A stretch of DNA of 64,000 nt from Bacteroidota bacterium (GTDB taxonomy: Bacteria > Bacteroidota > Bacteroidia > 2-12-FULL-35-15). The DNA lies in NCBI GenBank assembly GCA_016707685.1, contig JADJHE010000008.1:31300-95299 (forward strand), given 5' to 3'. Both the position numbers and the translations under genes were made by a program. Shown in pieces: positions 19,397 through 60,386 of the stretch (positions are counted from its first letter, which is position 1; every line of letters starts with the position of its first letter). The notes beneath the pieces are model-generated. The model saw only the letters and a program-made list of their open reading frames with translations. It was not told the origin of the DNA and searched no databases.

Positions 19397-19606
19397 TCAG
19401 TGTTTCGAACGCTGGTGTGTAAAATCCCTTCCGAAGAAATAAGTTCTTGTTCGGCATTCGGACCAGGGGTGTTGTGAAATAGTTCCACAAAGCACTTCAC
19501 TTTGTTTTCCATCCTTTTGATGCGTAGACACAGCATTTCCTTTGCTGTATGTTGAGAACAAAACAAACAGCGAAAGTAAAAAAGTAAAAAGGTGTTTTTT
19601 ATGCAT
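19397..19606 (-). CDS. small hypothetical secreted protein of 69 aa
   Basis: The signal peptide is MHKKHLFTFLLSLFVLFSTYSKG. The mature part has two Cys. It lies in a locally GC-richer patch. Weak. Confidence 0.2.
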   Translation of the reverse strand: MHKKHLFTFLLSLFVLFSTYSKGNAVSTHQKDGKQSEVLCGTISQHPWSECRTRTYFFGRDFTHQRSKH

Positions 19607-19711
19607 TATTTCTTTTGCAAAGATAAGAAATTTTAGGAAACTGAATTGTTATTGAGGATCGGAGTCTTGTTGGCTTTATTGTTATTGATTTGTAGCACAA
19701 AGTATTTTTGT

Positions 19712-20173: not shown

Positions 20174-20222
20174 TTTAGCAATGATTTGTTGTATAATCCA
20201 AATATACAAAAATCAAAAAAGG

Positions 20223-23481: not shown

Positions 23482-23579
23482 TCAGAAATTTGAGGCTGCA
23501 AAAGTACGCTTTTTTATTGAAGAATTAATGCCCTTTAATGTGTTTCCTTATTGATTTTTGCTTTATTTTAGATGAATAT

Positions 23580-25709
23580 ATGAAGATAAATAAAAAATAT
23601 ACGATTCTACTGTTTGTTTTGATAGCTATTCATTCGCTGTTTGCACAAACACCTGTTGTGGATAGTTTGAAAAAATTATCGACCGCAAATGTGAACGATA
23701 CCTTGAAAATGCATGCTTATGCAGAATTGACGTATGAGTACTTATCTATTGATATTGATTCGGCAAAAATGTTTGCCAACTTGGGGATAAAAAAATATAG
23801 CAACAACAAAAATAAATTATTGCTTTCGGATTTGTATGCAGCTTTGGGTACAGCTTATGGCTATGAACGTGATTTTGATAATAGTCTTGTCAATTTTAAT
23901 AAATCACTAGCCATTTTAAAAACAACAAAAGATAAAACGGCTATTTCAAAAACCTATTTCAATATCGGTTTGATATACTACTATACTGCTAAATACGATT
24001 TAGCAATTCAGCAATACATTGAAGCATTAAAATTATTAGAATCAATAAAAGACACGCAAACACTTCCTAATATTTACAATGGCTTGAGTGGTATGTACAA
24101 AGAGATTCGCAACTATGACGAAGCACTTAATTATGGACAAAAAGCCTTAAAATTATTTAGTCAGAATAAAGATTCAGTTGGCATGGCATCGGCATTAAAC
24201 AATGTTGGAAATGTATACGATTATCAGAATAAATTGGATGAGGCACTAGATAATTATCGCAAATCGATGCGAATGAAAGAGCTTATAAAAATGGAAAGAG
24301 GGATGTCTAGTACACTCAACAACATTGGAATTATATTATCAAAAAAAGATAGTGTGTTGCAAGCCTTGGAATATTACAACAAAGCATTAAGCTTTTCGTC
24401 TGTTAACTCCGATAAGATAAGTCAGGCTGTTTCCTATGATGGAATAGGAATGGTGTATTACAAAATGAAACAATACGATAAAGCGCTTTCGTTTTTAGAA
24501 AAAAGCATCGCTATATCTACCGATATTGATTCAAAATTGGATATTGTAAGTACGTATGAAAAAATTGCTTTATGTTATGCAGCTAAAGGGAATTACAAAA
24601 AAGCATTTGATTACCAGCAGTTATTATTTGCAACAAAAGATTCTATTTTTAATGTGGAAAGTTCGAGACAAGTTAACGAGTTGGCTACACAATACGAAAC
24701 AGAAAAAAAACAATTGTTGATTGATAATTTGAATAAGGACAATGCTTTAAAGCAAGAAGAGTTGGCAAAATCCGAATTGCAAGTGAAGCAACAAAACATG
24801 CAAATCATGTTTTTTATTTTAGCGGTATTATTGCTCTCGATATTGTCGTTTTTCATTTTTAGAAGCTACAAACAAAAGAAACAATCGGCAGAAATTATTC
24901 TTTCTCAAAAAGAAGAAGTTGAGCGCCAGCGTGATTTAGTAGAAGAAAAAAGCAAAGAAATTACAGATAGTATTCATTATGCAAAGCGCATTCAGCAAGC
25001 ATTGTTGGCATCCGATACATTTCTAAAAAAGCACATTGCCGATTATTTTATTTTTTACAAACCAAAGGACATTGTGAGTGGCGATTTTTATTGGGCAAAT
25101 GTGATTGATGGTAAATTTGTATTGATAACAGCCGATTGCACAGGACATGGAGTTCCGGGTGCATTCATGAGTTTGTTAAACATTTCATATTTAAACGAAG
25201 CAATTATTGAAAAAAGAATGGATGCTCCGGATAAAATTTTGGATTATGTTCGTTCGCAAATTATTCAATCATTAAATCCAGAAGGCTCAGAAAATGAAGG
25301 AAGAGATGGTATGGATGCTACACTTTGTATTTATGATTTTAAAGGAATGTGGTTGCGTTTTTCTGCAGCAAACAATCCTTTGTGGTTGTATCGTAACAAT
25401 GAAATAAAAGAATTTTCGGCCGATAAAATGCCTGTTGGAATGTATCATGGCGAACAAAAACCCTTTACACAACAAACAATTGGATTAAGAAAGGATGATA
25501 TCGTTTATACATTTACAGATGGATTTGCGGATCAATTTGGAGGCGAAAAAGGCAAAAAATTTAAATATAAAAATCTTCAGCAATTGTTGCTCAGCAATGC
25601 CAGTAAGCCAATGGCAGAGCAAAAACAAATCCTTGAAAAAACATTAAGAGATTGGCAAGGCAATATGGAGCAAGTGGATGATATTCTTATAGTTGGAATT
25701 CGGTTTTAA
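23580..25709 (+). CDS. signal peptide, TPR-repeat periplasmic domain, TM helix, coiled coil, PP2C/SpoIIE phosphatase
   Basis: About eight TPR-like repeats (..A..Y..A...Y....). TM helix IMFFILAVLLLSILSFFIF. Phosphatase motifs DIVSGDFYW, DCTGHGVPGAFMS, RDGMD and FTDGFADQFGG. The start was set at MKINKKY, which gives a proper signal peptide. Confidence 0.85.
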   Translation: MKINKKYTILLFVLIAIHSLFAQTPVVDSLKKLSTANVNDTLKMHAYAELTYEYLSIDIDSAKMFANLGIKKYSNNKNKLLLSDLYAALGTAYGYERDFDNSLVNFNKSLAILKTTKDKTAISKTYFNIGLIYYYTAKYDLAIQQYIEALKLLESIKDTQTLPNIYNGLSGMYKEIRNYDEALNYGQKALKLFSQNKDSVGMASALNNVGNVYDYQNKLDEALDNYRKSMRMKELIKMERGMSSTLNNIGIILSKKDSVLQALEYYNKALSFSSVNSDKISQAVSYDGIGMVYYKMKQYDKALSFLEKSIAISTDIDSKLDIVSTYEKIALCYAAKGNYKKAFDYQQLLFATKDSIFNVESSRQVNELATQYETEKKQLLIDNLNKDNALKQEELAKSELQVKQQNMQIMFFILAVLLLSILSFFIFRSYKQKKQSAEIILSQKEEVERQRDLVEEKSKEITDSIHYAKRIQQALLASDTFLKKHIADYFIFYKPKDIVSGDFYWANVIDGKFVLITADCTGHGVPGAFMSLLNISYLNEAIIEKRMDAPDKILDYVRSQIIQSLNPEGSENEGRDGMDATLCIYDFKGMWLRFSAANNPLWLYRNNEIKEFSADKMPVGMYHGEQKPFTQQTIGLRKDDIVYTFTDGFADQFGGEKGKKFKYKNLQQLLLSNASKPMAEQKQILEKTLRDWQGNMEQVDDILIVGIRF

Positions 25710-25746: not shown

Positions 25747-28700
25747 GTGCCGTTTTTTCTTTTATTTAGTAGTGTTTTTAACGATTTTATTGTGCCCACA
25801 ACAGTACTAAAAAAATATTTTTTATTCGTAGTTGTTTTTTTGTTCGTGCTTTTTTCGAAAGCACAACAAATGAACTTCAAAAACTTTTCTATTGAGGATG
25901 GTCTTCCTCAGTCTCAAATTATTGATATCTGTCAAGACAATACGGGTGTTATTTGGTTTGCTACCAATGGTGGTGGTGTGAGTAGATACAATGGGAATAA
26001 ATTTCTAAACTACAATACAAAAGATGGTTTAAGGAATAACCGTGTTTACGATATTTTCCAAGATTCAAAAAATACCATTTGGATAGGAACAGGCAAAGGG
26101 CTGAATAAATTTCACAATAATAAACTTGTTCATATTAGTGATGCGCAACTTGATCAGAAATCGATTCACAAAATTTATGAAAACACGAATGGTGAAATTT
26201 GGGTAGGTACGAGCGATGGAATTTTTATTTACAACGGTAAAAATTTTAGACCTTTTGTTGGTAACGATTCTATTGGTGCTTTTCAAGTATGGTCTATTCA
26301 GCAAGATAAGGCTGGAAATACGTGGATAGGAACATTGATGAATGGCGTTTTCTGTTATGATGGGAAACAAATGATTCATTTTACAAAAGAAAATGGATTG
26401 ATTGATTCAAAAAACAGAGATATTCTAATCAAAGGAAATCAGGTTTGGATTTCTACTTACAGAGGAATTAATATTTATGATTTATCAAAATCTTATTCGG
26501 GGAATCGTAAACTTGACACATTAAAATTTAATGGCAAACCATATCTTGAAACCGTTTATCGTTTTTACAAAGACACGAGTGGCGCGATATGGGCAGGAGT
26601 TGGTTCGGGGGTTGTGAAAATTACTTATGGGAACATTAAACATATTACAAAGCAAAACGGACTTTGTAGTAATATGATTTGTGGCATTACACAAGATAAA
26701 GAGGGAAATTTGTGGTTTGGTTCATTTGGAGGCGGTGTTAGTAAATACAGAAATGAATTATTTGAGAACATCAATGAAAATCAAGGATTAGCAAACAATA
26801 CGGTTATGTCTTTTTTCAAAGACAGTAAAAACAATATGTGGATTGGTACTTGGGGAGGTGGTGTTTCCAAATTAGATTTAACAACACTAGAAAAACACGA
26901 CTCTATTTCAATTCAAAATTTTATTCAATCAAAAAATGGTTTGGCATTTAACAATGTTTGGAGTATTTGCGAAGACAAGGCAGGAAAAATTTGGCTAGGG
27001 ACTTCAGCTCAAGGTGTAAGTGTATACGATGGGAAAGATTTTAAAAACTATCATATCAAAGATGGTTTGCATGGTATTCGAATTCAAACAATATTGTGCG
27101 ATAAAAAAGGAAATATTTGGATGGCCAATGAAAACGGCTTAGATAAATTTGATGGTAAAACATTTACATATTACGGTGAAAAGGAAGGAATGTCGGCAGA
27201 AGGAGTAAATGCTATTTATGAAGACAACGTTGGAAACCTTTGGTTTGGTTCACCCGATCGAATTATAAAATACGATGGTAAAATTTTTACCACCTTACTT
27301 CGACCAGGCGGTTTCCCTAAAATACGAAATATTATTCGAGACAAGTTTGGTTACATGTGGTTTAGTACAGATGCAGGTGCATGTGTTTATACGGGAAGTA
27401 AATTTTATTTGGTTTCAGAGTCGGATGGTTTAAGTTCAAATACAGTTTATTATGTAAAACCCGATGAAGATGGGAATTTGTGGTTGGGAACAAATAACGG
27501 GATTGATAAGCTCGACCTTTATAAATTTGTAAACAACAATGAAGTAGAGATAAAACATTATGGTAAGGAAGAAGGTTTTATGGGAGTTGAATGCAACCAA
27601 AATGCTTTTTATAAAAACGATGACGGAAAGCTGTGGATAGGAACAATTGGTGGTGTTACCATTTACAATCCTAAAGAAGAACGAATTAATAAAATCGAAC
27701 CCCAAACACACATTACAGGAATTCGTTTATTTTTAGAGGATACAAATTTTAAAAAGTATTCGGATAGTATATTAGATGGACTTCCGATTAATCTTGTTCT
27801 TCCATACGATAAAAATCACATTACGTTTGACTTTATAGGAATATCACATACAATTCCAAACAAAGTAAAATACCAGTTTATGCTGGAAGGAGCCGATCAA
27901 AATTGGTTGCCTGAAGGGAAAGAAATAAGTGCTACGTATTCAAATTTGCCTCCTGGTAAATACACGTTTGTATTAATTGCAAAAAACAATGATGGTATCT
28001 GGAATAAAAACCCTGTTCGTTTTTCTTTCGAAATAGTTCCTCCTTTTTGGCGTCAGTCTTGGTTTTATCTATTGTCGGGTGCAATTGGGATAACAGCAAT
28101 TTATCTTTTTGTTAAAATGCGTGAGCATAGTTTGCAAAGAAGTAGAATGCGTTTAAAAGAAGAAGTAGCAAACAGAACAAAAGAATTGGAAGAAGAGAAA
28201 GAAAAATTGCAAGAAGCATATTCTGAAATTGATGAAAAAAACAAAGACATTACCGATAGTATAAAGTATGCGAAACGAATCCAAGAAGCAATTTTGCCTG
28301 CCGATTCAATTTTTAAACAACACTTGCCAAATTCGTTTGTGTTGTATAAACCAAAAGATATTGTAAGTGGAGACTTTTACTGGTTAGAAAAATGGGGACA
28401 TCAAATTTTGATAGCAGCAGTTGATTGCACTGGACATGGCGTTCCTGGTGCCTTTATGAGTATTGTTGGGCACAACTTGTTAACTCAAACAGTAAATGCA
28501 TTGGGGTTATCGAAACCCGCTTTGGTATTAAATGAAGTAAACCAACAACTCTCCAAAAAACTAAATCAAAATCCAGAAGAAGCAACCGTTCGCGATGGAA
28601 TGGACATTGCTCTGTGTGGAATTAATTACGTTAAAAAAACAATTGAATTTGCGGGAGCCAATAATCCCGTTTGGATTATTAAAAATGGGAAGGAGTTGGT

Positions 28701-29002
28701 TCAACTAAATGGAGACAAATTTCCAATAGGCGCTTTTGTTGGAGAAGAGCTTCAGCAATTTACCAATCATGAATGGCAATTACAAGAAGGTGATATCATT
28801 TATTTGTTTACTGATGGTTATGCCGATCAGTTTGGTGGACCTAAAGGAAAAATTCAAATACAAACAATTCGAAGAGTTGCTATTGTCTGTTTGCAATAAA
28901 CCATTTGCAGAACAAAAAGAACGATTAGAAAAAACAATAGAAGAGTGGCGAGGAGAGTTGGAGCAGGTAGATGATATATTGGTTATTGGAATAAAGATAT
29001 AA
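25747..29002 (+). CDS. propeller/Y_Y_Y-TM-PP2C sensor phosphatase. The C-terminal end is frameshifted at an A5 run (28848-28852).
   Basis: ORF 25747..28899 ends FTDGYADQFGGPKGKIQIQ*. The conserved tail (K)FKYKQ...EQVDDILVIGIKI continues in ORF 28736..29002 in the +1 frame. The paralogs read this region uninterrupted. Confidence 0.75.
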
Positions 29003-29005
29003 AAG

Positions 29006-32000
29006 TTGAAACTACTAAAAAAATACTACTACTACTTTTGTTTTTTGTTGTTAGCGCCACGAAGGCGCAATACAATGGCTTTCCTATTCGAAACTACTCC
29101 CAAAAGGAATACAATGCATTTATGCAAAATTGGTATTGTGTTCAAGATAAACGTGGTGTTTTATATTTTGGAAATAGTAGTAATGTATTGGAATACGATG
29201 GAAAAAACTGGCGTAAAATTCCAATTGTTAAAGGAGTTGCTGTTCGCTCACTATACATAAATAGTCAAGGGACCATATTTGTTGGAACGGTTGGTGATTT
29301 TGGTTATTTAGCACCTCAAAAAAATGGAGATTTAATTTATCAATCATTAAGCTCCTTGTTACCTGCTGAAAAAAGAACATTTTCAGATGTGTGGCACATA
29401 CAAGAATTGAATGGTGCAATTCATTTTCAAACGAGTGAAAATATATTTGTTTATGAAAAGAATAAACTAAAAGTTGTTGCACCAACGCAAAACACATTTG
29501 CTTCCATCTCGTTTAAAATAAACGATCTTCTATTGCTTCGTGAGCGTAAAATTGGATTGATGAAGTGGGACGGCAAATCTTTGTCATTGTTTCCGGGTGG
29601 AGCTTTTTTGCAGAACACTGCAGTTGTAGGGATGATTAATTTTCCAACCCAACACAGCAAGAATATTTTAACAATCTCAGTTGATGAAGGATTTGCCTTC
29701 ATCGATACTGAAAAAGGAAAAATTACAAAATACAATGCTCCTTCCGAAAACGAATTAAATACGATTGGCGTTTTAGGAATGCAGTGGTTTAATGATTCAA
29801 CAATAATTTTAAATACACGCTCAGGTGTTTATTTTTTAGATAACAAACTAAACATCATTCGAACAATAACCAAAGCAGATGGATTGGTAGATGAATCGGT
29901 AGCAGACATTTTTTTTGATTTGCAAAAAGAAATGTGGCTAAGCACAAATAATGGAATTAGTAAAGTATCGGTAAATTCTCCCTTTTATTATTACAATGCT
30001 ACAGCAGGATTAAATGGAAATATTGAAGCTATTACAACACTTGGAAATACAATTTACGTTGGAACAACATCTGGAATGTATGTTGCAGAATTAGGAACAA
30101 ACAATAGAAGTGGCGCTCCTCAAAAATTAGTTTTTAATCAAGTTGAAGGCACTTATTTTGAGACATGGAATTTTAGAGTGGCAGAGAACAGGGTATATGG
30201 AGCAACAAGTGATGGGGTTTTCGAAATTGTAAACAAAAAAGTGGCTCGTCTTACGAAGGCATATTCGAACACAATTTATATTCACGAAAACAACCGAATG
30301 TTTATCGGTGAAAAAGATGGTTTACGAGTTTTAGATAAAAAGGGAGAAAAATGGATTGAATCGCACTTTTTTAGTATTCCAACAAGCGATATTATGAACT
30401 TTGTATTGGAGGGAATAAATGAGAAGAGTGAGTCTTTCGTCTGGTTTAGCACTCGAAACAGTGGTGTATATAAAATGATCATACAACCGGATTATAATTA
30501 TGCACTAACACATTTTGATACAACAAATGGATTGCCGAATGAACAGGTATTTATATTTAAAAAAAATCAGGAGGTATACTTCAATGGAAATCATTTTGTT
30601 TATCAATTTGATAAAAAGGCATCGAACCCAAAGAAAAAATTTGTTGTTGTCAATAAAAATGCATCAGCTTATAACCATAATGCAGAACCAATTCCACTTT
30701 TAAATATTGAAAATCCGAACACCCAAAAAACAGTTAAAGCAATAGCGGCAATCGAAGACCAAGGTTATACCTATTACCAATCCGATTCGTCTATTTTGTG
30801 GATAGGTTTAACAGATGTACTCACGCGCTATGATGCAACAGTTCAAAAGGAATATTCACCCGTATATACTACACTTATCAGAAAGGTTACTATTGCAAAC
30901 GATTCAACTGTTTTTGCAGGGACATTTTCTGTTCCTTTTGAAAACGGCTATGTGGTTGTTGATACACAAACCACGAACTTTATTCCAGAAATTGCTTATA
31001 AATACAACACATTGGATTTTAACTATTCAGCAGCATTTTATGATCGAGAGGATAAAATAAATTTTAGTTATAAATTAGTTGGTTTTGATACGGCTTGGAG
31101 TGAGTGGTCTAGCTTGAATTATAAACAATACACCAATTTGTATGAAGGCGAATACTCCTTTGAAGTAAAAGCAAAAAACATTTATGGACATGAAAGTAAA
31201 ATAGCAAACTATCGTTTTGTTATTCTACCTCCTTGGTATAGATCTTTCATTGCTTATATCATCTATTTTATTGCATTTATTATTTTGATTATCATAATTG
31301 TTCGCATAAGTGTTTGGCGATTAAGAAAAGCGAAAATAAAACTTGAAAAGATTGTTGACGAAAGAACCGCAGAAGTTGTAAAACAAAAAGAAGAACTACA
31401 GCAAAAAAGCGAAATTATTGAAGTTGCATACAATGATATCAAATCAAGTATTAATTATGCAAAACGAATTCAAGAAGCAATTCTTCCTTTGAATGAAGAA
31501 ATAAAAAAATCTTTCCCAGAATCATTCATTTTGTTTAAACCAAGAGATGTTGTAAGTGGAGATTTTTATTGGTTTACGAAAACCGCAGGAAAAACAATTA
31601 TTGCATGCGTTGATTGCACAGGCCATGGCGTACCTGGTGCTTTTATGAGTATGATTGGCAATACGCTATTAAACGAAATTGTGGTCGAAAAAAATATTAC
31701 ACAACCCAATCAAATACTTAACTTACTTCATGAGCGTGTTCGACAATCGTTAAAGCAGGATATGGAAAACACAGAGACACGCGATGGAATGGACATTGCT
31801 ATTTGTGTAATTGATGATGCGAAAGAGCAATTGCACTATGCAGGTGCAAATCGCTCCTTGGTAATTATTCGCGACAAGTCCTTAATTGAACTAAAAGCAG
31901 ACAAACAGCCTATAGGTGGTGATCAAATGGAGCAAGACCGTGTTTTCAAAAACATCGAATTTAAGCTTCATAAAAACGATGTTATTTACATGACAACAGA

Positions 32001-32193
32001 TGGTTATGCGGATCAATTTGGAGGAGAAAAAGGGAAAAAATTTATGGTAAAACGCCTACATCAGCTATTGATAGATTTGAATGATAAAAAAATGGATGTA
32101 CAAAGCATGCTGTTAAAAAATACTATTGAAGACTGGCAAGGGAATCTGGAACAAGTAGATGATATATTGGTAATTGGAATAAAAATCTCATGA
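29006..32193 (+). CDS. divergent-propeller/Y_Y_Y-TM-PP2C sensor phosphatase. The 5' end is probably frameshifted at an A7 run.
   Basis: The PP2C motifs VVSGDFYW, DCTGHGVPGAFMS, RDGMD and TTDGYADQFGG are intact. If the A7 run at 29017-29023 is read as A8, the TTG/ATG at 29006 gives MKLLKKILLLLLFFVVSATKAQ, a canonical signal peptide. As given, the signal peptide is split between two frames. Confidence 0.75.
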
Positions 32194-34283
32194 AAAAAAT
32201 AATCGGAATTCTATTTCTTTCAATTTTGACAAACAGTTTTATGTTTGCTCAAAAAAGTAAAGTTGTAGTTGATAGTATACAAAAGCTATTGACTGTTACA
32301 AACGATGATGCCTTGATTGTTGAATACAAAAATCAACTAGCCTATGAATATGTTATTGACGATGCTGTTAAAGCAAAAAAAACTGCAACAGAAGCACTTT
32401 CCTTGGCAACAAAAATTAATAATCAGTTAGGAATTTTAAATGCGAATAACAATCTTGGTCTTGCTTGTTATTATACAAACGACTATGACCAAGCATTAAA
32501 GCATTATTATATTTCTCGAGATATTGCTAAGGAATTAAAAAACAATTCGAAATTGGCCGTTGCTTTAAATAACATAGGTTTAGTATACGATGACAAAGCA
32601 GATTATAATAATGCATTAACGTATTATTTGCAATCGTTAAAGCTGGTGGAAGGCACAGGTGAAAGTAAGTCTCAGCTAGCGAGTACATTAAATAACATTG
32701 CATTAATATATCAAACACAAGGAAAATACGAAGAAGCATTATCGTTTCACAACCGAGCATTAAAAATAAAAAGGGAGATTGGAAACAAGCGAGGTGAAGG
32801 AAGCTCTCTACACAATATCGGTTTAGTATATAAACTAAAAGGAGAGTATGATAAAAGTTTAGAGTTCTATCATCGAGCACTTGAACTTCGTAAGTTAATT
32901 AATGATGAGTCGGGAGTTGGACTAACACTCAATAATATTGGGAGTGTATATGATTCAAGAGGAGAATACGATAAGGCACTTCGTTATTTTGAAGAAGCAT
33001 TGGTTATACGTGAAAAATCGCAAGATAAATACGGATTAGCAATTACCTTGTTTAGTATGGGAAGTGCTTATTGTGAACGTAAAGAGTATAAAAAGGGAAA
33101 CGAATTCATAGAACGAGCAATGAACATTGCAAAGGAGATAGGTGCAAAAGAGCTATTAAAGCATGGCTATGAAACCTATGCACTTATTTATGCAGCCCAA
33201 GGCGATTACAAACATGCATACGAAAATCAGAAAGAATACATTGCTGTTAAGGATTCTATTTTAAATGAAACTACAATTCAGCAGTTGAATGAATTGCAAA
33301 CAAAATATGAAAGCGAAAAGAAGCAAAAAGAATTAGAGTTGGTTACCAAGGAAAGCAAAATTCAAGCGCTCGAGTTGAATAAAAATAAATTATGGATGTA
33401 TGTAATGGTTATTGCAATTCTTTTAGTAATAAGTCTTGCCGTACTTTTATTTAATCGCTATAACCTTAAACAAAAAGCAAACGAATTATTAGCACATCAA
33501 AATGCTGAAATAACACAACAGAAAAAGGAAATTACGGATAGTATTAATTATGCTAAACGTATTCAAGAATCTATTTTACCACCTCAAGATCATTGGAAAA
33601 AATTATTACCGAACAGTTTTATTTTTTATCGCCCGAAAGACATTGTAAGTGGCGATTTTTATTGGATAGAGCAAAAACAAAACATTGTTTGCTTTGCAGC
33701 TGTAGATTGTACTGGACATGGGGTCCCAGGGGCTTTGATGAGTGTAGTAGGCTTTAATTTACTGACACAAGCGGTGAATGAAGTGGGTTTAACAAAACCT
33801 TCTGAAATATTAGAACATTTAGATGCAGGTGTTACAAAAACATTGCGACAAACAGAACATGGTAAAGGAGTAAAAGATGGAATGGATTTATCTTTGTGTT
33901 CGTTTGATACAACAACGAATTTGCTGCAATATGCAGGCGCATTTAATGCGTTGTATTACGTTAGAGAAAATACGTTACACGAAATAAAAGCAGATAAATT
34001 TCCAATTGGAGTAAATTTAGATGGCATTGTAGATAATTATAAAAATCATACGATTCAATTACAAAAAGGAGATTGTGTGTATTTGTTTTCGGATGGATAT
34101 GCTGATCAGTTTGGTGGTTCAAAAGGAAAAAAATTCAAATACAATCAATTGAAAAATCTATTTATAGAGATTGCTAAACAGCCAGTTGATGAGCAAAAAC
34201 AAATTATTGCTGATGCTTTTGATGTGTGGAAAGGTGGTTTAGAGCAAGTGGATGATGTTGTAGTAATAGGATTGAAAATCTAA
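32190..34283 (+). CDS. signal peptide, TPR domain, TM helix, PP2C/SpoIIE phosphatase
   Basis: TPR repeats. TM helix LWMYVMVIAILLVISLAVLLF. Phosphatase motifs DIVSGDFYW, DCTGHGVPGALMS, KDGMD and FSDGYADQFGG. The start overlaps the upstream stop by 4 nt (ATGA). Confidence 0.85.
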   Translation: MKKIIGILFLSILTNSFMFAQKSKVVVDSIQKLLTVTNDDALIVEYKNQLAYEYVIDDAVKAKKTATEALSLATKINNQLGILNANNNLGLACYYTNDYDQALKHYYISRDIAKELKNNSKLAVALNNIGLVYDDKADYNNALTYYLQSLKLVEGTGESKSQLASTLNNIALIYQTQGKYEEALSFHNRALKIKREIGNKRGEGSSLHNIGLVYKLKGEYDKSLEFYHRALELRKLINDESGVGLTLNNIGSVYDSRGEYDKALRYFEEALVIREKSQDKYGLAITLFSMGSAYCERKEYKKGNEFIERAMNIAKEIGAKELLKHGYETYALIYAAQGDYKHAYENQKEYIAVKDSILNETTIQQLNELQTKYESEKKQKELELVTKESKIQALELNKNKLWMYVMVIAILLVISLAVLLFNRYNLKQKANELLAHQNAEITQQKKEITDSINYAKRIQESILPPQDHWKKLLPNSFIFYRPKDIVSGDFYWIEQKQNIVCFAAVDCTGHGVPGALMSVVGFNLLTQAVNEVGLTKPSEILEHLDAGVTKTLRQTEHGKGVKDGMDLSLCSFDTTTNLLQYAGAFNALYYVRENTLHEIKADKFPIGVNLDGIVDNYKNHTIQLQKGDCVYLFSDGYADQFGGSKGKKFKYNQLKNLFIEIAKQPVDEQKQIIADAFDVWKGGLEQVDDVVVIGLKI

Positions 34284-51774: not shown

Positions 51775-52389
51775 TTATTCTTCCTCTATTAATTGTTTGT
51801 ATTTGTTAATTAGTTTATGTCCTTTTAAAGTACAAATGCCATGTAAAAAATGATCGAGCATACTTAGTTGTATTTCAACAATCTTAAATTTGTCGGGCGG
51901 GAAAACATCTAGATTAAGTCCCATTTCAACTTGTTCGATTCGCATTCGGGAAAGCACTTTTGAATTTATATCTTCACGAACCAATCCCTCCTTTTTACCT
52001 CTTTCGATAGATCGCTCTACCATTTGTGCCATGCAATCATTTTTGAATGCTTTAAAATGGCTCCAAGCTTTTGGATGATATTTTTGTAAATCGTAAAAAA
52101 TATTGGGATTGGTTTTGGAGAACATGACACTAATGTGTTTCATCATGTGCATTACTTCTTCAATCATATTTTCGGCAGCAGCTTGAATTTCTTGAAACTC
52201 GCACTCATCCTGCTGTAATGTTGCTTGCATTAATGTTTCAACAATTTCATTTTTATCAGCGTAAAATTGATAAATCGTCTTTTTGGAAATCGCAAGATGT
52301 TTAGCAATATCATCCATTGTAACACTCTTAATTCCATACTTAAAAAACAGTTCTTCGGCTCCTTTGAGTATACGTTCTTTTGGTTCCAT
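51775..52389 (-). CDS. TetR/AcrR family transcriptional regulator
   Basis: The N-terminal HTH GIKSVTMDDIAKHLAISKKTIYQFYADK. The gene lies upstream of the RND operon. Confidence 0.85.
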   Translation of the reverse strand: MEPKERILKGAEELFFKYGIKSVTMDDIAKHLAISKKTIYQFYADKNEIVETLMQATLQQDECEFQEIQAAAENMIEEVMHMMKHISVMFSKTNPNIFYDLQKYHPKAWSHFKAFKNDCMAQMVERSIERGKKEGLVREDINSKVLSRMRIEQVEMGLNLDVFPPDKFKIVEIQLSMLDHFLHGICTLKGHKLINKYKQLIEEE

Positions 52390-52538
52390 TTTTTGTAGCT
52401 GTTAAATTTCGAGCGCAAAACTATGGAAACATTTTTTATTTCCGAAGTTTCCGGCTTGTTTAATTTGTTCAAAAGAGGTAATTGGCTGTAAATCAACACT
52501 AAAAAATAAACAAAATAAACAAAAAATGTTTCCATGGC
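52381..52538. promoter_or_regulatory. candidate operator and promoter region of the tetR-RND operon, divergent from the T9SS cargo gene
   Basis: A 15-bp perfect inverted repeat: ATGGAAACATTTTTT at 52423-52437 and AAAAAATGTTTCCAT at 52521-52535. A third related copy, TGGTTCCATTTTTT, overlaps the tetR start codon at 52381-52394. Confidence 0.35.
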
Positions 52539-52630
52539 GAAAATAATCCAAGATTTTGCTTTTTCGTTTCGGAAAAAAAGTTTTTGTGGTTTGATAAAAT
52601 GGACTATTTTAGCATGCTTAATTTTAAAAC

Positions 52631-55600
52631 ATGAAAAAACATATACTTTCTTTAGCATTTGCTATTCTGAGCAGTGCTTTTATTTTTGGTCAAGACAGTT
52701 GGACGAATGTCGTTAAGGGTGGTCTGAATGGATCTGGCAATCGTTATCTTAATAGTTTTCACATATTTAATGGTGAATTATATGTTGCGGGTGGTTCTAA
52801 CATGGGTTATATAAATAAAACTTCAACTGGAAATCCAAACGACTGGGCTCAAGTACTTTATGGGGATAGTATCACGATGTTTTCTGGATTAAACTCTACG
52901 ACTGAAGGTGGTGGTAAAATGTTTGCAATTGCTAAGGGTGGCCCAGGGCTACCTTCTATTTATCAAACGACAGATGGGAGCAATTGGAATCTATTTTACA
53001 AACATTCAAGCTACGATGAAATTGAATATGTTTTCCCTTTTAAAGGTCAAGGTGCCGTTGATTCAATCTATGCAGGAATATTTGCTTGGCCAAACAGTTT
53101 AATTCTTAGAGCGGCTTATAATACATTGGATACTACAGGTTTTAGCGGAAGTTGGGATACTGTGCTTGATTTTAGCGCTGTTGCTTATGGAACACGCATT
53201 ACTAGCATACAAGAGCACAATGGAAAAATATTTTTGGGTACAAACCTATCAACCTTATGGAGTTCATCAGATGGTGTTAACTGGGTTCAAAACGCGAATG
53301 TTGGCAATGGTTTTGGTAATGGAAACAATTATCAAATTACAGCGTTGGCATCTTTTGGCGGTTATTTATATGTTGGAACAGAAAATGGTACTGATGGGGC
53401 GCAATTATGGCGTTCAAATGATGAAACGACATGGACACTGGTGCAGCAATTTCCAACAGCTTTGGTTGAAATTTCAAGTTTGGCTAATGAAGATGGAAAG
53501 CTTTGGGTAGCTCTTAGACCGGGGAATTTTAATTATGGTGTTGATTTGTATAAATCAACAGATGGAACAACATTTACGGTTTCTGTAACGAATGGTTTTG
53601 GTGACTATAATAACAATGGTTATGATACTTACATAAAAGCATTTGGGAATAATATTTATTGGACAGGGGAGAATTACTATGCTGGAAGAGGGAATGTTTC
53701 TTTGAAACAATATGGAAGCAGAGGAGGTCCAATGAGTGCCGGTTCAGAAATCTGGAGATTGTGTATCACCACACCTCCAACAGTAAATCTAGGTTCTGAT
53801 CAGACAGTATGCGCTGGAACCACAGTAAATTTAGATGCAGGAACAGCAGTTTCGTACCTTTGGAATGATACAACAACAAACCAAACTTTAAATGCATTAT
53901 ATCCAGGTCAATATTGGGTAAGTATTGTGGGTGCAAATGGATGTTCAGCTGCAGATACATTTAATTTAAATAACACAACTTCACCTACTGCTTATATTAC
54001 TAGTCCTCAATTTGGTCCTACTACAGTTTGCGCTGGTGCTCAATTAAATATGACAGCTTCAGCGAATTCGAATCTTATTATTCCCTCTGCTCCTATTCAT
54101 AAACCAACCAGCAATCTTATCACAGATTATTTTTATTCATATGATACAATTGCGGTTTCTGGAATTGTTGATTCTGCCGATGTCTCCTTATATTCGGTAA
54201 CAATAGATAGTTTAGAACACACTTATGTCAATGATGTTGAATTGCGTTTGTATGCACCCAATGGGTCTTCTACCAAATTGTATTTTGGTTATGCTGGTGG
54301 AGGTCAGAATATGATGGGTGCTGAATTTAATATGATGGCAACAAATACAATAAATTCAGGAGCCGGACCTTTCACAGGAGCTTGGTTGCCTGAAGAACCT
54401 TTTAACTGGTTGAATGGAAATTCAAATGGAAATTGGTATCTAGAAATTTATGACCATTATTCAGGTGATACGGGTATTTTAAAAGGTTGGAGCATACGTT
54501 TTGCAGATAGAGATACTGTTATGACTTACGCTTGGACACCAGCAGCTGGTTTGACATCATCAAATACATTGAATACACAATTAACGGCAAGTGTTTCACA
54601 AGATTATATTTTTACTGCAACGAATGCATTAGGTTGCTCTTCTTCTGACACAACAAGCATTTTTGTTCCAACATTAGACATTTTTGTTTCGAACGATTCA
54701 TTGTGTTTTGGTGATTCAGCTACACTTTCTGCTGTTGGTCAAAATATAATTTGGTCGCCTGGTACAACTTTAAGTGGTACCGCAGGACCATTCGTCACAG
54801 CATACCCAGTTACGAATACCATGTATTATGCGCAAGATACTGTTATGGGATGTTTTGTTCAAGACTCTGCTTTAGTTTCAGTTAGTCCTACTTTTTCTAT
54901 AACAACATCAACTCCTACAATTTGTGCAACAGATGTTGCTTTGGCTTATGGAATGGCAAGCGGTGGAATTGCGCCCTATTCTTTTAATTGGATAGATGGT
55001 ACAAATTCTTATAGCAACGATTCGATTTTGGTTACTCTTTCTACTACAACAAGTTATACTGTTACTGCATCGGATGCATTTGGTTGTGTTGCAATTGACC
55101 TCACTACAATTAATGTAACACCAAGTACAGCTATTTTTGGTAATGTAACCTATTCTGGAGGAGTATTATCTAATGGAGGAACAGCTGTATTGTATAACTC
55201 ATACCCATTCTTTATTTCATTTGATACTGTTCAAACTGCATCTATTGATGGGTCTGGAAATTACTTATTCACAGCAGTCCCTTTTGGTGATTACATTGTA
55301 AAAGTGTTTCCAAATGCAACATATCCAACAACAATTCCAACATATTCGAATAATACCTATCTGTGGGATGCAGCAAATGTTATTGTGCATGGTTGTAATC
55401 AATCCGATACTGCAAATGTTTTAATGGTAGAACAAGTTGCACCAGTTGCAGGACCAGGATTATTGGGCGGTAGAATTGTTGAGGGGAATGGATTTGGCCG
55501 TTTAGAAGGCGATCCAATTCCGGGTATTGACGTTAAATTAGGTAGAAATCCAGGTGGAGCACTAGTGGTTAACACAACTACAGATAACAATGGAGAATAC

Positions 55601-56071
55601 GTTTTCACGAGCTTACCTTTAAACGATGGTGGAGCAAATGGAGTAAGTTATACCGTTTATGTTGATATCCCAGGTTTAGGCAGAGACTCATCCTATACTG
55701 TTGCTATTGATGCAACGACTCCTATATTGGATAGTTTGAACTATTTGGTTGATTCAACAACAGTTTACATCGTTCCTAGTTCATCAACAGGAATTAGTAA
55801 TCCAACGATTGCAAAAGAAAATAAATTTAATGTATATCCGAATCCTTTTAATGAAAACACAACAATAGCTTATACATTAAATGCTGATGCGGAAGTTCGT
55901 TTAGAAATTTATAATGTGTTAGGAATAAAAATTGAAAGCATTGTAAACACAAAACAACAAGCAGGCGAATTCAAGTATTTAATGGACAACAAAATGAATG
56001 CTGGGGTGTATTTTATCAGCTTAACAATTAATGATAAAACAGCAACTCAGCGAGTTGTAAAAATGAAATAA
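52631..56071 (+). CDS. large T9SS-secreted cargo protein: beta-propeller-like N-terminal region, Ig-like repeats, proprotein-convertase P-domain, CarboxypepD_reg-like domain, T9SS C-terminal sorting domain
   Basis: Signal peptide. P-domain-like segment (..VNDVELRLYAPNGSSTKLYFGYAGGG...NWYLEIYDHYSGDTGILKGWSIRF). C-terminal FNVYPNPFNENTTIAYTL...VRLEIYNVLGIKI...GVYFISLTINDKTATQRVVKM matches the Por/T9SS CTD. Confidence 0.8.
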   Translation: MKKHILSLAFAILSSAFIFGQDSWTNVVKGGLNGSGNRYLNSFHIFNGELYVAGGSNMGYINKTSTGNPNDWAQVLYGDSITMFSGLNSTTEGGGKMFAIAKGGPGLPSIYQTTDGSNWNLFYKHSSYDEIEYVFPFKGQGAVDSIYAGIFAWPNSLILRAAYNTLDTTGFSGSWDTVLDFSAVAYGTRITSIQEHNGKIFLGTNLSTLWSSSDGVNWVQNANVGNGFGNGNNYQITALASFGGYLYVGTENGTDGAQLWRSNDETTWTLVQQFPTALVEISSLANEDGKLWVALRPGNFNYGVDLYKSTDGTTFTVSVTNGFGDYNNNGYDTYIKAFGNNIYWTGENYYAGRGNVSLKQYGSRGGPMSAGSEIWRLCITTPPTVNLGSDQTVCAGTTVNLDAGTAVSYLWNDTTTNQTLNALYPGQYWVSIVGANGCSAADTFNLNNTTSPTAYITSPQFGPTTVCAGAQLNMTASANSNLIIPSAPIHKPTSNLITDYFYSYDTIAVSGIVDSADVSLYSVTIDSLEHTYVNDVELRLYAPNGSSTKLYFGYAGGGQNMMGAEFNMMATNTINSGAGPFTGAWLPEEPFNWLNGNSNGNWYLEIYDHYSGDTGILKGWSIRFADRDTVMTYAWTPAAGLTSSNTLNTQLTASVSQDYIFTATNALGCSSSDTTSIFVPTLDIFVSNDSLCFGDSATLSAVGQNIIWSPGTTLSGTAGPFVTAYPVTNTMYYAQDTVMGCFVQDSALVSVSPTFSITTSTPTICATDVALAYGMASGGIAPYSFNWIDGTNSYSNDSILVTLSTTTSYTVTASDAFGCVAIDLTTINVTPSTAIFGNVTYSGGVLSNGGTAVLYNSYPFFISFDTVQTASIDGSGNYLFTAVPFGDYIVKVFPNATYPTTIPTYSNNTYLWDAANVIVHGCNQSDTANVLMVEQVAPVAGPGLLGGRIVEGNGFGRLEGDPIPGIDVKLGRNPGGALVVNTTTDNNGEYVFTSLPLNDGGANGVSYTVYVDIPGLGRDSSYTVAIDATTPILDSLNYLVDSTTVYIVPSSSTGISNPTIAKENKFNVYPNPFNENTTIAYTLNADAEVRLEIYNVLGIKIESIVNTKQQAGEFKYLMDNKMNAGVYFISLTINDKTATQRVVKMK

Positions 56072-56074
56072 TAA

Positions 56075-58338
56075 ATGAGAAAAAATTTAAAAATAAATAC
56101 AATGACAAAAGCCTTTAAGGCTTTTGTTGTTTTTGGACTTTTAATTTCTGCAAATAAAATAATTGCTCAACCGCTTACAGCAAATGCAGGACCAGATCAA
56201 AATATTTGCGATGGTGCAGGTGGCGTAACAATTGGAGGAGCTCCAACAGCTACATTTGGTACACCTCCTTATACCTATTCCTGGGCTCCAGCTTTTGGTT
56301 TAAGTTCTACCACTGTTGCAAATCCAGTTGCTACACCAAACTCAAATGTAACCTACACGCTTACTGTAACCGATGCAGTAGCAGCCACTTCGTCTGATGG
56401 TATTTATGTTGGGGTTACTTATCCAGCAAGTGCTTTTGCTGGTGGAAATATGACTATATGTGCTGGTACAACAACTGTAAATTTATCTGCTTCAATGGGT
56501 GGTTCTGCTTCTTCGTTAACATGGACAACATCAGGAACGGGAAGTTTTTCTAGTCCTACATCCATGGTTACAACCTACACTCCTTCACCTGCAGATGAGC
56601 TTGCTGGAAGTGTTTTTTTAACCATGACAACAAATGACCCTGCAGGACCTTGTCCTGCAGCTACAAGTTCGTTAACATTAACAATAAACCCTATTCCTGT
56701 AGCAACAATTAATGGAGGCACATCCTTCTGCGATGGTGGTCCTATTTCTTATATAGCAGATCCAGTTGCAGGTGCTACTTATAGTTGGTCAGGACCAAAC
56801 GGATTTTCTTCCACAGATCAAAATCCAATAATCAATCCAGCTTCAGCAATTAATTCAGGACTTTATACACTAATTGTTGCTGTTGGTGCTTGTGCAGATA
56901 CAGCTGATATTACAGCTGTTGTAAATCCAACGCCATCGTCTTCAATAACAGGCTTGACAGATGTTATCTGTAACGGGCAAAGTAATGGAACGGCAACAGT
57001 TACGGCAACAGGCGGACTCCTCCTTATTTATATTTTTGGGACGATCCAATGAACCAAACAACTGCTACTGCAATTAATTTGAGTGTTGGAAATTATAATG
57101 TCTCAGTCTCGGATGCAAATGGTTGCAATGCCAACAATGCAAGTGTAGGCATTAATGAACCTACTGCGATGTTTACCAATGTGTTTTCTCCAACAATTTG
57201 TTTAGGCGATTCAGTTACTATTAATCCAATTGTTGCGGGTGGCGTTCCTCCTTATTCGTATGTGTGGGATCAAGGCGGTACGTATTATTACACACCTACT
57301 TTACCACTTGCGCCAACAAGTTCAGTTACATTCACATTAACAGTTACCGATGCAAATGGTTGTTATTCTACTAGTAATCCAGGAATAACGGTTAGCCCTT
57401 TAACAGAGATGTATGGTTCAATTGATTATTCAGGTGGTCCTTTGGTAAATGGCGGAACAGCAGTTTTGCTAAATTGGTATCCTACATTTACAACATTTGA
57501 TACCATTCAAACTTATGCAATCAATGCTGCTGGAACGTATTTCTTTTCGGCTGTACCAGCAGGAAATTAGTTAATAAAAGTATTTCCTGATACATTGTTA
57601 TATCCTTCTACAGTGCCAACCTATTTTGGAGATCAGTATTTGTGGACTTTGGCCCAGGTTAAAAATCACGGTTGTGTTGATGTGGATACAGCAAATATAT
57701 TTATGGTTGAAGGTGTTACAGGTGTTGGACCAGGAATGTTGCAAGGAACGGTATTGGAAGGGCCAGGTTTTGGACGTTTAGAAGGAGATCCCATACCCGG
57801 AATTGATATTAAATTGGGACGAAACCCTGGCGGAGCATTGGTAACGCAAACAACAACAAATGCTACCGGACAATTTACATTTGATAATATTGACATAAAT
57901 ACTCCGGGCGAATATTATACGGTATATGTTGATTTACCTGGACGAGAGAGAGACTCAACATACAATGTAATTGTTACCGCAAGTAACACAACATTTAATC
58001 AGTTGGATTATGCAGTTGACAGCAATTCAGTTTATCCAATAAATCCGATTGTTACAAGTATAGGTTATTATAATTTTGCAAACGAAAACAAATTCAGTGT
58101 TTATCCAAATCCATTTAATGAAAATACAACAATAGCATATACCCTTTCTGCCGATGCTGAGGTTCGATTAGAAATTTATAATGTATTAGGAGTTAAAATT
58201 CAAAATATCCTTAGCACAAAACAACAAGCAGGTGAATTCAAGTATGTATTAGATAACAAAATAAATGCTGGTGTGTATTTTATTAGCCTAACAATTAATA
58301 ATAAAACAGCAACTCAACGAGTTGTAAAAATGAAATAA
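56075..58338 (+). pseudogene. inactivated tandem paralog of the T9SS cargo gene, with one frameshift at 57014-57018 and one in-frame TAG at 57568-57570
   Basis: Three ORF pieces (56075..57052, 57049..57570, 57595..58338) are collinear with the intact downstream paralog. The N-terminus MRKNLKINTMTKAFKAF is nearly identical to the next gene. The TAG replaces the TAT (Tyr) of the paralog. Confidence 0.7.
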
Positions 58339-58340
58339 AA

Positions 58341-60329
58341 ATGAGAAAAAATTTAAAAATAAACATGACAACAAAAGCCTTTAAGGCTTTTGCTGTATTA
58401 GGATTGTTGCTTTGTACATTTAATAATGTGCAATCGCAAACAGCTGATGCTGGATTTGACCAAACAATTTGTGAAGGATCGTCTACTTCAATTGGTGGAT
58501 CTCCAACTGCATCAGGTGGACTCGCTCCATACACATATTCTTGGGCTCCATCAACCGGCTTGAACTCCCCGGTTGTTGCTAATCCAATTGCAAACCCAAC
58601 TGTTACAACAACTTATACGGTGACCGTTATTGATGCAAATGCTACAGCAACCTCGGATGTAATTACCGTTACAGTTAATCCTTTGCCATCTTCAGTTACG
58701 GCTAACTCAAACACTCCTGTTTGTGATGGTAGTCAATTGTTTTTATCGGGATCAGCAGCAGGAGGCACAACATTTAGCTGGGCTGGACCAAATGGTTTCA
58801 CGTCAACGCTGCAAAATGCACAAATTAATCCAGTATCAACTTTAGCTGCTGGAACCTATACTTTTACAGCTGTTTCTGCTTTTGGTTGTGCAACTAGTGC
58901 AACTACCAATGTTTTTGTTTCAGCATTGCCTGTTGTAACAATAGCATCAACCACAAATGTAACATGTAATGGTTTGTCAGATGGAACAGCTACCGCAAAT
59001 GCAACAGGTGGTGTTGGTCCATATACTTATTCTTGGTCTCCATCTGCAAATACGACTCAAGTTGCAGTTGGCTTAGCTGCGGGAGCTTACACTGTTTATG
59101 CAACTGATTTAAATGGATGTTCATCGCTAGCAAATACAACCATTACTGAACCAACAGCGATTAATTTAAGTGCACCTTATCCAACAGCTTGTTTAGGAGA
59201 TTCAACTCTTATCAATTCTTCAATTAGTGGTGGTATTCCTCCTTATACCTATGTATGGGATCAGGGAGGATTTTATTACTACACACCTTCAATAAATATT
59301 GCTCCTGCTAGTTCGGTTACATTTACACTTACAGCTACTGATGCAAATGGATGTACAGCATATACCTACACAGGTCTTACTGTTAATCCTTTAAAAGATA
59401 TAGATGGAACAATCGATTATTCTGGAGGAGCTCTAATAAATGGCGGAACAGCAGTATTGTTTAATTGGTATCCAAATTTTACAATATTCGACACGGTTCA
59501 GACTTATCCAATAAACGCTGCTGGAGCATATATTTTTTCAGCAGTGTCATCAGGAAATTATTTAATAAAAATATTCCCAGATACATTGTTATATCCTTCC
59601 ACAGTACCAACCTATTTTGGAGATCAATATTTATGGACCTTGGCACAAGTTAAAAATCATGGTTGTGTTACAAATGATACTGCAAATATATTTATGGTTG
59701 AAGGCGTTACAGGTGTTGGTCCAGGAATGTTGCAAGGTACGGTATTAGAAGGTCCTGGTTTTGGTCGTTTAGAAGGAGATCCAATACCAGGAATTGATAT
59801 TAAATTGGGACGAAATCCAGGTGGAGCATTGGTAGCACAAACAACAACCAATGCTACAGGACAATTTACATTTGATAATATTGATGTAAATGCTGCAGGC
59901 GAATACTATACAGTATATGTTGATTTACCCGGAAGAGAAAGAGATTCTACCTACAATGTAACTATTACAGCAATCGATACAACATTTAACCAATTGGATT
60001 ATGCGGTGGATAGCAATTCGGTATATCCGCTTAATCCTGTTAATGTGGGAATTAGTAATAGCGATCTTGCAAAAGAAAACAAATTTAACGTTTATCCAAA
60101 TCCGTTTAAAGGAACAACAACTGTTGCATACACTTTAAATACCGATGCTGATGTGCGTTTGGATGTTTATAATGTATTGGGTGTAAAGGTTCAATCCATT
60201 GTAAATACAAATCAACAAAAAGGCGAATTCAACTATAACCTGGATACTAATTTTAATTCGGGAATTTATTTTGTGAGTTTGACGATTAATGGTAAAACAA
60301 GCACACAAAGAGTCATAAAGATGGATTAG
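58341..60329 (+). CDS. T9SS-secreted cargo protein paralog with Ig-like repeats, a CarboxypepD_reg-like domain and a T9SS CTD
   Basis: It shares near-identical N-terminal and C-terminal regions with the upstream copies. The CTD reads FNVYPNPFKGTTTVAYTL..VRLDVYNVLGVKV..GIYFVSLTINGKTSTQRVIKM. Confidence 0.8.
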   Translation: MRKNLKINMTTKAFKAFAVLGLLLCTFNNVQSQTADAGFDQTICEGSSTSIGGSPTASGGLAPYTYSWAPSTGLNSPVVANPIANPTVTTTYTVTVIDANATATSDVITVTVNPLPSSVTANSNTPVCDGSQLFLSGSAAGGTTFSWAGPNGFTSTLQNAQINPVSTLAAGTYTFTAVSAFGCATSATTNVFVSALPVVTIASTTNVTCNGLSDGTATANATGGVGPYTYSWSPSANTTQVAVGLAAGAYTVYATDLNGCSSLANTTITEPTAINLSAPYPTACLGDSTLINSSISGGIPPYTYVWDQGGFYYYTPSINIAPASSVTFTLTATDANGCTAYTYTGLTVNPLKDIDGTIDYSGGALINGGTAVLFNWYPNFTIFDTVQTYPINAAGAYIFSAVSSGNYLIKIFPDTLLYPSTVPTYFGDQYLWTLAQVKNHGCVTNDTANIFMVEGVTGVGPGMLQGTVLEGPGFGRLEGDPIPGIDIKLGRNPGGALVAQTTTNATGQFTFDNIDVNAAGEYYTVYVDLPGRERDSTYNVTITAIDTTFNQLDYAVDSNSVYPLNPVNVGISNSDLAKENKFNVYPNPFKGTTTVAYTLNTDADVRLDVYNVLGVKVQSIVNTNQQKGEFNYNLDTNFNSGIYFVSLTINGKTSTQRVIKMD

Positions 60330-60345
60330 TTTTCATAAAAAAAAG

Positions 60346-60386
60346 AAAAGCCCAATCCATCATTTGGATTGGGCTTTTCTTTTTTA
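60346..60386 (+). terminator. rho-independent terminator
   Basis: A 14-bp stem AAAAGCCCAATCCA / TGGATTGGGCTTTT with loop TCATT, followed by TTTTTT. Confidence 0.8.

Follow-up and report, generated by a model that had tools for sequence, protein, structure and literature searches.

An apparently old array of type IX secretion cargo paralogues with a disrupted middle member in an uncultured freshwater lineage of Bacteroidota

Type A cargo proteins of type IX secretion systems (T9SS), among them the gingipains and adhesins of Porphyromonas gingivalis and secreted proteins of Flavobacterium johnsoniae, carry a C-terminal sorting domain (CTD) that is described by the models TIGR04183 and PF18962. 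In the passages of PMC9143113 that treat such cargo, the CTD is recognized by the T9SS and removed, and the protein is attached to the surface or released, anchoring being by covalent linkage to anionic lipopolysaccharide; the same route of recognition, CTD removal, and attachment or release is given in PMC10202324. In addition, surface virulence factors of P. gingivalis are known to exchange alleles and to have their domains rearranged (Dashper et al. 2017, PMC5266723). Here we analyzed three adjacent plus-strand genes, g1, g2 and g3, that span positions 52631-60329 of a 64-kb stretch of DNA from an uncultured Bacteroidota bacterium (contig JADJHE010000008.1, positions 31,300 to 95,299; hereafter the window). 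We propose, with a probability of roughly 80%, that they form an old array of T9SS cargo paralogues whose duplication is older than the relatives sampled, in which g2 is privately broken, g1 and g2 are mosaics of alleles, and the products have an adhesin-like role at the cell surface.

By its open reading frame (ORF) and domain hits, g1 (52631-56071) encodes a type A cargo protein of 1146 aa and g3 (58341-60329) an intact one of 662 aa; between them lies g2 (56075-58338), a disrupted paralogue whose product would be 754 aa long if repaired. An initial annotation of this DNA had noted the same T9SS sorting domain at the end of three consecutive genes, and profile searches agree: TIGR04183 matches g1, g2 and g3 with 46.4, 47.1 and 46.0 bits (cutoff 23) over model positions 1-71 of 72, PF18962 scores 38.6-43.4 bits (cutoff 27), and each match stops 2-3 residues before the stop codon. 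The CTDs lie at nt 55832-56059 in g1 (aa 1068-1143), nt 58099-58326 in g2 and nt 60090-60317 in g3 (aa 584-659). At the other end of each protein a signal peptide was called by inspection, with a lysine-rich n-region, a hydrophobic h-region and glutamine at the predicted +1 position (FG/QDSW, QS/QTAD and IA/QPLT for g1, g2 and g3, the slash marking the cut); in the structural model of g3, residues 6-27 form a low-confidence N-terminal helix. The +1 glutamines fit the Q-rule of Bacteroidetes, a glutamine after the signal-peptidase site, as it is put forward in part of PMC5837995. The three proteins therefore resemble described type A cargo in their Sec signal peptide, a CTD of about 75 aa, the full-length model match and immunoglobulin (Ig)-like domains just before the CTD. 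They differ in that a domain scan of g1, g2 and g3 found no catalytic domain in any of them, and in that the organism is uncultured and known here from sequence alone.

Common to all members is a C-terminal module of about 330 aa that consists of Ig-like domains, a CarboxypepD_reg/SdrD_B-like beta-sandwich and the type A sorting domain, and a tandem series of T9SS cargo genes built on such a module, as initially described, is thus supported. The beta-sandwich contains an invariant loop, EGDPIPGID(I/V)KLGRNPGG, and outside its Ig repeats the module has no solved sequence relative. The block motif that the initial annotation read in all three copies is exact in g2 and g3 only (VPTYFGDQYLWTLAQVKNHGCV); g1 reads IPTYSNNTYLWDAANVIVHGCN. 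The N-terminal heads differ. In g1, cleavage of the signal peptide is expected before Q21, and a beta-propeller (about aa 40-345), a P-domain (aa 527-624; PF01483, 29.6 bits, cutoff 21), Ig-like/SprB-like repeats and the beta-sandwich (aa 952-1026) precede the CTD. The heads of g2 and g3 are instead chains of PKD, Ig and SprB-repeat domains: g2 has, after its signal peptide, a PKD-like domain, an additional domain (about 90 aa) that g3 lacks, an Ig_7-like domain and SprB repeats, and g3, likewise after a signal peptide, a PKD-like domain, Ig_7 and two SprB repeats (PF13573, 64.4 bits, cutoff 28), each followed by the shared module.

Structure prediction is consistent with these assignments. 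The AlphaFold2 model of g3 (mean predicted local distance difference test score, pLDDT, 82.6) is an all-beta, Ig-like chain ending in the CTD sandwich, and its best Foldseek matches in the Protein Data Bank (PDB) are fragments of Aureispira GhpA (target-normalized template modelling score up to 0.68), followed by eukaryotic Ig-chain adhesion molecules; by sequence, GhpA is found at an E value of 4.5e-168 over 24 stretches. With GhpA (PDB 9flp and related entries) and F. johnsoniae SprB, g3 shares SprB repeats and a beads-on-a-string Ig fold. At 662 aa (g3) and 754 aa (g2), compared with 5898 aa for deposited GhpA, the array members fall short of filament length; g2 and g3 are short chains with a type A CTD, and the resemblance is at the level of the repeat domain only. 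The model of g1 is weaker (pLDDT 64). It combines an Ig chain and a P-domain sandwich with the N-terminal beta-propeller (about residues 40-345), for which the fold matches are SorCS2 and BT4663; a sequence search of the PDB with g1 gave no matches. The P-domain is shared with subtilisin-like proprotein convertases, the label that a g1 orthologue (P0084) carries at the Joint Genome Institute; since g1 has no Peptidase_S8 match at E values up to 0.01, the P-domain alone being found, and its N-terminal part models as a beta-propeller, the convertase name is misleading for g1.

The three genes had initially been taken for copies sharing some 700 bp of near identity, which does not hold: nucleotide identity between the blocks concerned is 68% for g1/g2, 65% for g1/g3 and 79% for g2/g3, and the longest exact run among them is 26 nt. 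When the sequence was compared with itself by blastn, g2 and g3 matched at 79% over 1072 nt, and 55809-56137 matched 58076-58403 at 85% over 329 nt. This latter segment pairs the 3' end of g1, the spacer and the start of g2 with the 3' end of g2, the spacer and the start of g3, and could be the footprint expected from an unequal crossing-over between neighbouring sorting domains that gave rise to g2 and g3. We regard the copies as true paralogues, since their similarity is far above chance, though not high. The shared N-terminus of g2 and g3 was correctly recognized (MRKNLKIN..TKAFKAF), and repaired g2 is colinear with g3 except for the extra domain of about 90 aa. g1 aligns with g2 and g3 over its C-terminal 500-700 aa or so only, at 43-50% amino-acid identity. 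Synonymous divergence (dS, by the Nei-Gojobori method) between g2 and g3 is 1.02, with a ratio of nonsynonymous to synonymous divergence (dN/dS) of 0.26; their best-conserved block gives a dS of 0.55-0.6 and a dN/dS of 0.07-0.08, and g1 differs from g2 or g3 by a dS of 1.3-1.4. Opposite the conserved beta-sandwich block of g1 runs an antisense ORF of 69 aa (55399-55608, minus strand), with counterparts opposite g2 (57666-57896) and g3 (59657-59851). Initially described as identical artefacts of the duplication, these ORFs do exist and are by-products, namely of the conserved sense sequence: the sense strand has the domain matches and a dN/dS of 0.07-0.1 in the block. They are, however, similar only and not identical.

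How old the array might be can be judged from its relatives. All comparison sequences are metagenome assemblies or metagenome-assembled genomes (MAGs); each named relative is an uncultured "Bacteroidia bacterium" MAG, the label of one referring to a lake time series, and the exact g3 protein is present on 6 public contigs. Near-identical to the window over 15.7 kb are L002 (the contig also handled as L016; 99.7%) and L001 (GCA_964268675.1, a 205-kb contig; 98.9%), both with g1, intact g2 and g3. More diverged arrays are g1-g2-g3-g4-AsnRS (asparaginyl-tRNA synthetase) in L007 (243-kb contig; g3 83% identical), g1-g2-g3 in L020 (1.04-Mb contig; g1 89% and g2 90% at the amino-acid level), g1-g3 in L009 (g3 74%), g1-g2-g4 in L011 (g2 65%) and, at another genomic site, g1-g3-gX-gY in L010 (g3 54%). 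Orthologues of g1 thus occur in L001, L002, L007, L009, L010, L011 and L020; g2 is intact at 754 aa in L001, L002, L007 and L020 and at 752 aa in L011, and is also unbroken in L005, where the gene is partial and which belongs with L001 and L002 to the relatives at 98.9-99.7% identity. The additional member g4 (584-585 aa; 11991-13748 in L007, 12260-14014 in L011) joins a Choice_anch_L head to the same C-terminal module and CTD. The window does not contain it; either the window lineage lost g4, or L007 and L011 gained it.

The AsnRS gene beside the array offers a measure of these lineage splits: its dS from the window is 0.53 for L007 and 1.15 for L011, and is saturated for L009. Set against these values, the divergence of g2 from g3 is at least as old as the splits, and the claim of a recent event fails both on this count (dS about 1.0 overall, no younger than the separation from relatives with AsnRS dS of 0.5 to more than 1) and because diverged relatives carry orthologous arrays of two, three or four members. 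Trees of the N-terminal segments lead to the same view. The g2 genes of the window, L007 and L011, which share the 90-aa insert, group together and apart from the g3 genes of the window, L007 and L009; since g2 and g3 orthologues are separated in this way, the duplication predates these lineages. The tree of the C-terminal block instead joins g2 and g3 from the window, L007 and L009 and sets g2 of L011 apart, a pattern that indicates an old partial homogenization (gene conversion) between g2 and g3, or else strong shared constraint. The initial annotation had offered a differing copy number as the finding that would expose an assembly artefact. The order g1-g2-g3 recurs in four independent assemblies (L001, L002, L007 and L020), and a copy-number artefact is therefore rejected; with a longest exact run of 26 nt between copies, assembly collapse is unlikely.

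Inactivation of the middle copy, in contrast to its recent origin, is supported in this sequence, and both lesions that had been reported could be located: one nucleotide is deleted, and a TAT codon is changed to TAG. At 57013-57015 (plus strand) one G of GGCGGGACT is missing (GGG to GG), which causes a -1 frameshift inside an SprB repeat (...ATGG/TPPYLYFWDD...); in a three-frame translation the frame slips at ...TATVTATGG/TPPYLYFWDDPMNQ... within the repeat. The window reads GGC-GGACT where near-identical public contigs read GGCGGGACT, with L001, L002 and L005 all carrying the extra base, and over 18.3 kb the window and L016 differ by no other indel. At 57568-57570 (plus strand) the window has TAG; in L001, L002 and L005, and likewise in the paralogue g3, the codon is TAT (Tyr). 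The gene is consequently split over ORFs of 325 aa (56075-57052), 173 aa (57049-57570) and 247 aa (57595-58338). Judged by the intact 754-aa orthologues in L001, L002 and L005, its frame is disrupted and it qualifies as a pseudogene, and its broken product has no record in the public collection. Neither fragment would be expected to be secreted, since the 325-aa piece has no sorting domain and the 247-aa piece no signal peptide. The changes in g2 that are private to the window comprise four synonymous substitutions, one Val-to-Ile replacement, the nonsense mutation and the frameshift; being mostly silent otherwise, they suggest that this allele was functional until very recently.

Lesions that are private to one sequence would be either young or errors of the consensus, and we lean toward a real knockout. 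The alternative, that g2 is intact in the organism and that the frameshift and stop arose in the consensus, for example from mixed alleles of co-occurring strains, is distinctly less probable and nonetheless the strongest competitor. The deletion trims a G run from GGG to GG, and short G runs are a typical place for consensus errors; set against this, g2 has two lesions that are independent and separated by 555 nt, the other being a T-to-G substitution, atypical of a homopolymer error. Strain variation at the locus, the four metagenome contigs that break in it, the intact 754-aa g2 of all other assemblies and the remaining private changes (four synonymous, one conservative), which fit a normal functional allele, would all suit an error. 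Yet the deletion is the only indel relative to L016 in 18.3 kb, and the window assembly is not generally error-prone, since its other long ORFs, of up to 1158 aa, are unbroken. A programmed frameshift or readthrough in g2 was rejected, the near-identical relatives having a plain intact ORF. As a separate observation, L001 has split genes at 13693-16890 (Y_Y_Y/SpoIIE), 17474-19798 (TonB-dependent receptor) and 19874-20975 (dprA), which are intact in L003 and L007; this suggests that the L001 assembly is indel-prone and that broken genes in assemblies of this population need read-level support.

Beyond the private lesions, strain-level differences are unevenly distributed. Nearly all of those between the window and its closest relatives fall into g1, g2 or the spacer that precedes g1; g3, AsnRS and the efflux genes upstream are identical. 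All 27 differences from L003 and all 32 from L004 fall in g2, as do 24 of the 25 from L005. Of the 48 from L002, 16 are in g2 and 31 in the TetR-family gene that adjoins the array on the minus strand. These 31 occupy the 52006-52499 bin in the comparison with L002/L016 and were counted to the TetR-family gene (52006-52389), the rest of the efflux operon being essentially identical; the TetR tract may represent a second short recombination-like tract adjoining the cargo array. Relative to L001, the window has divergent tracts of 10-14% at 55483-56032 and 56527-57021. In the first of these, the L001 g1 tract is nearest to the g1 allele of L007 (91.5%, compared with 86.5% for g1 of the window), and among the paralogues it matches g3 alone, over 41 nt. 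At the variable sites the bases are not those of the paralogues. Four short metagenome contigs end at or within g2. The locus had been predicted to be prone to recombination and troublesome in assembly, and the hot spot and the contig breaks bear this out; the predicted collapse of copies does not follow, the longest exact run being 26 nt. Taken together, the mosaics in g1 and g2 indicate allelic homologous recombination among co-occurring lineages. They are comparable to the allelic exchange of P. gingivalis in presenting strain-specific mosaic surface variants that depart from the background phylogeny between near-identical flanks, with the difference that the present evidence is drawn from an environmental bacterium and its metagenome assemblies, not from isolates.

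A dedicated system for surface variation, in which paralogues serve as donors for ectopic conversion, a promoter is inverted or a diversity-generating retroelement acts, would also concentrate strain differences in g1 and g2 between identical flanks, and the past conversion between g2 and g3 in the C-terminal block is in keeping with it. We nevertheless consider such a system very improbable. Ectopic gene conversion from the paralogues of the window was rejected: at the variable sites the variant alleles of the relatives match neither g3 nor g1, in L001 the divergent tract of g1 corresponds to the orthologous allele of the L007 lineage and not to g2 or g3, and exact runs between copies do not exceed 26 nt. 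Switching by a promoter that inverts between the two 19-nt repeats (52423-52441 and 52517-52535, in inverted orientation) was likewise rejected, since the inner segment of L001 matches directly at 61 of 75 positions and as reverse complement at 20 of 75, and is thus not inverted. Moreover, allele differences are mostly synonymous (dN/dS about 0.07-0.11 relative to L001) and so point to imported diverged alleles rather than diversifying mutation. Least credible of all is a recent tandem triplication of one cargo gene into near-identical, collapse-prone copies with the middle one decaying as redundant, which would account for the shared C-terminal module, the head-to-tail order with spacers of 2-3 nt, the crossover-like repeat of 3' end and next start (55809-56137 and 58076-58403, 85%) and the broken g2, but is contradicted by blocks of only 65-79% identity at a dS of about 1, by the different architecture of g1, whose N-terminal 630 aa are unlike the others, by g2 and g3 orthologues occurring separately in diverged lineages, by a copy number repeated in four independent assemblies, and by a dN/dS for g2 of 0.07-0.26 relative to g3 and 0.07-0.17 relative to orthologues, which places g2 under selection almost until now.

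Spacers of 3 nt (g1/g2) and 2 nt (g2/g3) separate the genes, and a strong hairpin with A- and T-tracts is found after g3 only, at 60339-60385 (AAAAAAAAGAAAAGCCCAATCCA tcattt TGGATTGGGCTTTTCTTTTTT; bidirectional and intrinsic-terminator-like). It is probably the end of a g1-g3 transcription unit, and the spacing and terminator are consistent with an operon. Upstream on the minus strand lie the TetR-family gene, which starts at 52389, and then an OEP/MFP/RND efflux operon. The presumed promoter of g1-g3 would be within the divergent intergenic region between the TetR-family gene and g1 (52390-52630), which contains conserved GGAAAC/GTTTCC motifs and the 19-nt inverted repeat mentioned above, its partner (52517-52535) lying 75 nt from the first copy. 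The motifs (ATGGAAACATTTTTTATTTCC....GTTTCC) are at 52417-52470, immediately upstream of the start of the TetR-family gene, are kept in L007, L009, L011 and L020, and are probably a TetR operator. A scan for sigma-70 promoters found 30 sites where shuffled sequences led us to expect 33, though that consensus may not suit Bacteroidota, whose promoters follow another one. Searches of the window for known RNA families and tRNAs found none. Downstream, the neighbour of g3 is AsnRS, and in related loci dprA lies about 8 kb downstream. The window also holds six to seven paralogous sensor-phosphatase genes, an unusual local clustering of one signalling architecture, at 4345-7683 (+), 7673-10873 (-), 23538-25709 (+), 25747-28899 (+), 29038-32193 (+), 32190-34283 (+) and from about 61.97 kb to the end of the window. 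Four combine a Reg_prop beta-propeller with Y_Y_Y and SpoIIE (PP2C) domains and two combine TPR with SpoIIE; a further gene of the Reg_prop/Y_Y_Y/SpoIIE type begins after AsnRS.

One feature of the array was unexpected. The signal-peptide coding regions of g2 (56105-56127) and g3 (58371-58393) contain a perfect palindrome, ACAAAAGCCTT-T-AAGGCTTTTGT; in general form it reads ACA(ACA)AAAGCCTTTAAGGCTTTTGT(TGT) and is 23-29 nt long. The plus-strand copy in g2, ACAAAAGCCTTTAAGGCTTTTGT, covers codons 11-18 (TKAFKAF) and as RNA would fold into a stem of 11 bp that is closed by a 3-nt loop and has GUUGUUUUUGG after it. In the g3 copy the last base differs, and with its flanks it extends to 58368-58396 (ACAACAAAAGCCTTTAAGGCTTTTGCTGT), so that the hairpins range from 11 to 14 bp ahead of the U-rich stretch. 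The design is that of the terminator after g3: an A-tract, an AAAAGCC...GGCTTTT stem and a T-tract. The palindrome nucleotides recur in g2 of L007 and L011, in g3 of L009 and in both genes of L020, lineages between which synonymous sites are otherwise saturated. In the 23-nt core there is one change across lineages, and it is in the loop; the flanking stem extension varies (ATG for ACA in g2 of the window, GCT GTA for GTT GTT in g3). A codon alignment of six sequences identifies the palindrome as the gene's most conserved stretch of nine codons, with 6 of 9 columns identical, compared with at most 3 of 9 elsewhere and 9% overall. The palindrome is absent from g1, g4 and the g3 genes of L007 and L010, and no covariation was seen, the core pairs never varying. 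A metagenome scan found only the orthologous array of L020 and three unrelated intergenic hairpins, so the palindrome is not a widespread repeat element. It is conceivable, if doubtful, that the palindrome is a conserved element acting in cis and not simply a consequence of the TKAFKAF peptide. It may act as an attenuator, an mRNA stabilizer or an operator; were it functional, a partial intrinsic terminator (attenuator) or an mRNA-stabilizing hairpin would be the most likely role.

The history that we propose for the array is as follows. The g2/g3 duplication would have taken place before the sampled relatives diverged, followed by partial homogenization of the C-terminal half between g2 and g3 and by loss or retention of members that differed between lineages; in the window, g2 would then have been knocked out by two young private lesions. 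The products would be exported by the Sec pathway, their signal peptide being cut before glutamine, and the T9SS would recognize the CTD and carry the protein across the outer membrane, where the sorting domain would be removed and the protein attached to the cell surface or released. Because no catalytic domain is detectable, g1-g3 are most likely surface binding or adhesin-like proteins. Several points weigh against this proposal. The adhesin-like role is drawn solely from the lack of a catalytic domain and the Ig-chain fold. No T9SS machinery gene was found among the ORFs of the window that were scanned, and secretion is deduced from the sorting domain alone. The deletion in g2 falls in a short G run, and the lesions may be errors of the consensus. 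Assemblies of the relatives may be strain chimeras, in which case part of the mosaic could be an assembly effect. Finally, the operon structure is read from spacing and the terminator, the sigma-70 promoter scan having equalled shuffles.

An old paralogue array, then, best describes what resembled a fresh triplication: modular heads that share a C-terminal stalk and a sorting signal, the usual route by which the T9SS surface proteome is diversified in Bacteroidota. In an uncultured freshwater lineage, the locus exemplifies differential loss of array members, an old homogenization of the C-terminal part of g2 and g3, and mosaicism confined to surface genes, and a knockout of g2 that is private to one strain suggests that the array can do without single members. 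Apart from the conserved palindrome, a modest open question, the locus is ordinary. Signals of gene expression are poorly known in Bacteroidota; if the palindrome is functional, hairpins at cistron starts would be a small new piece of operon regulation, by which expression would be graded from gene to gene in a tandem operon of T9SS cargo.

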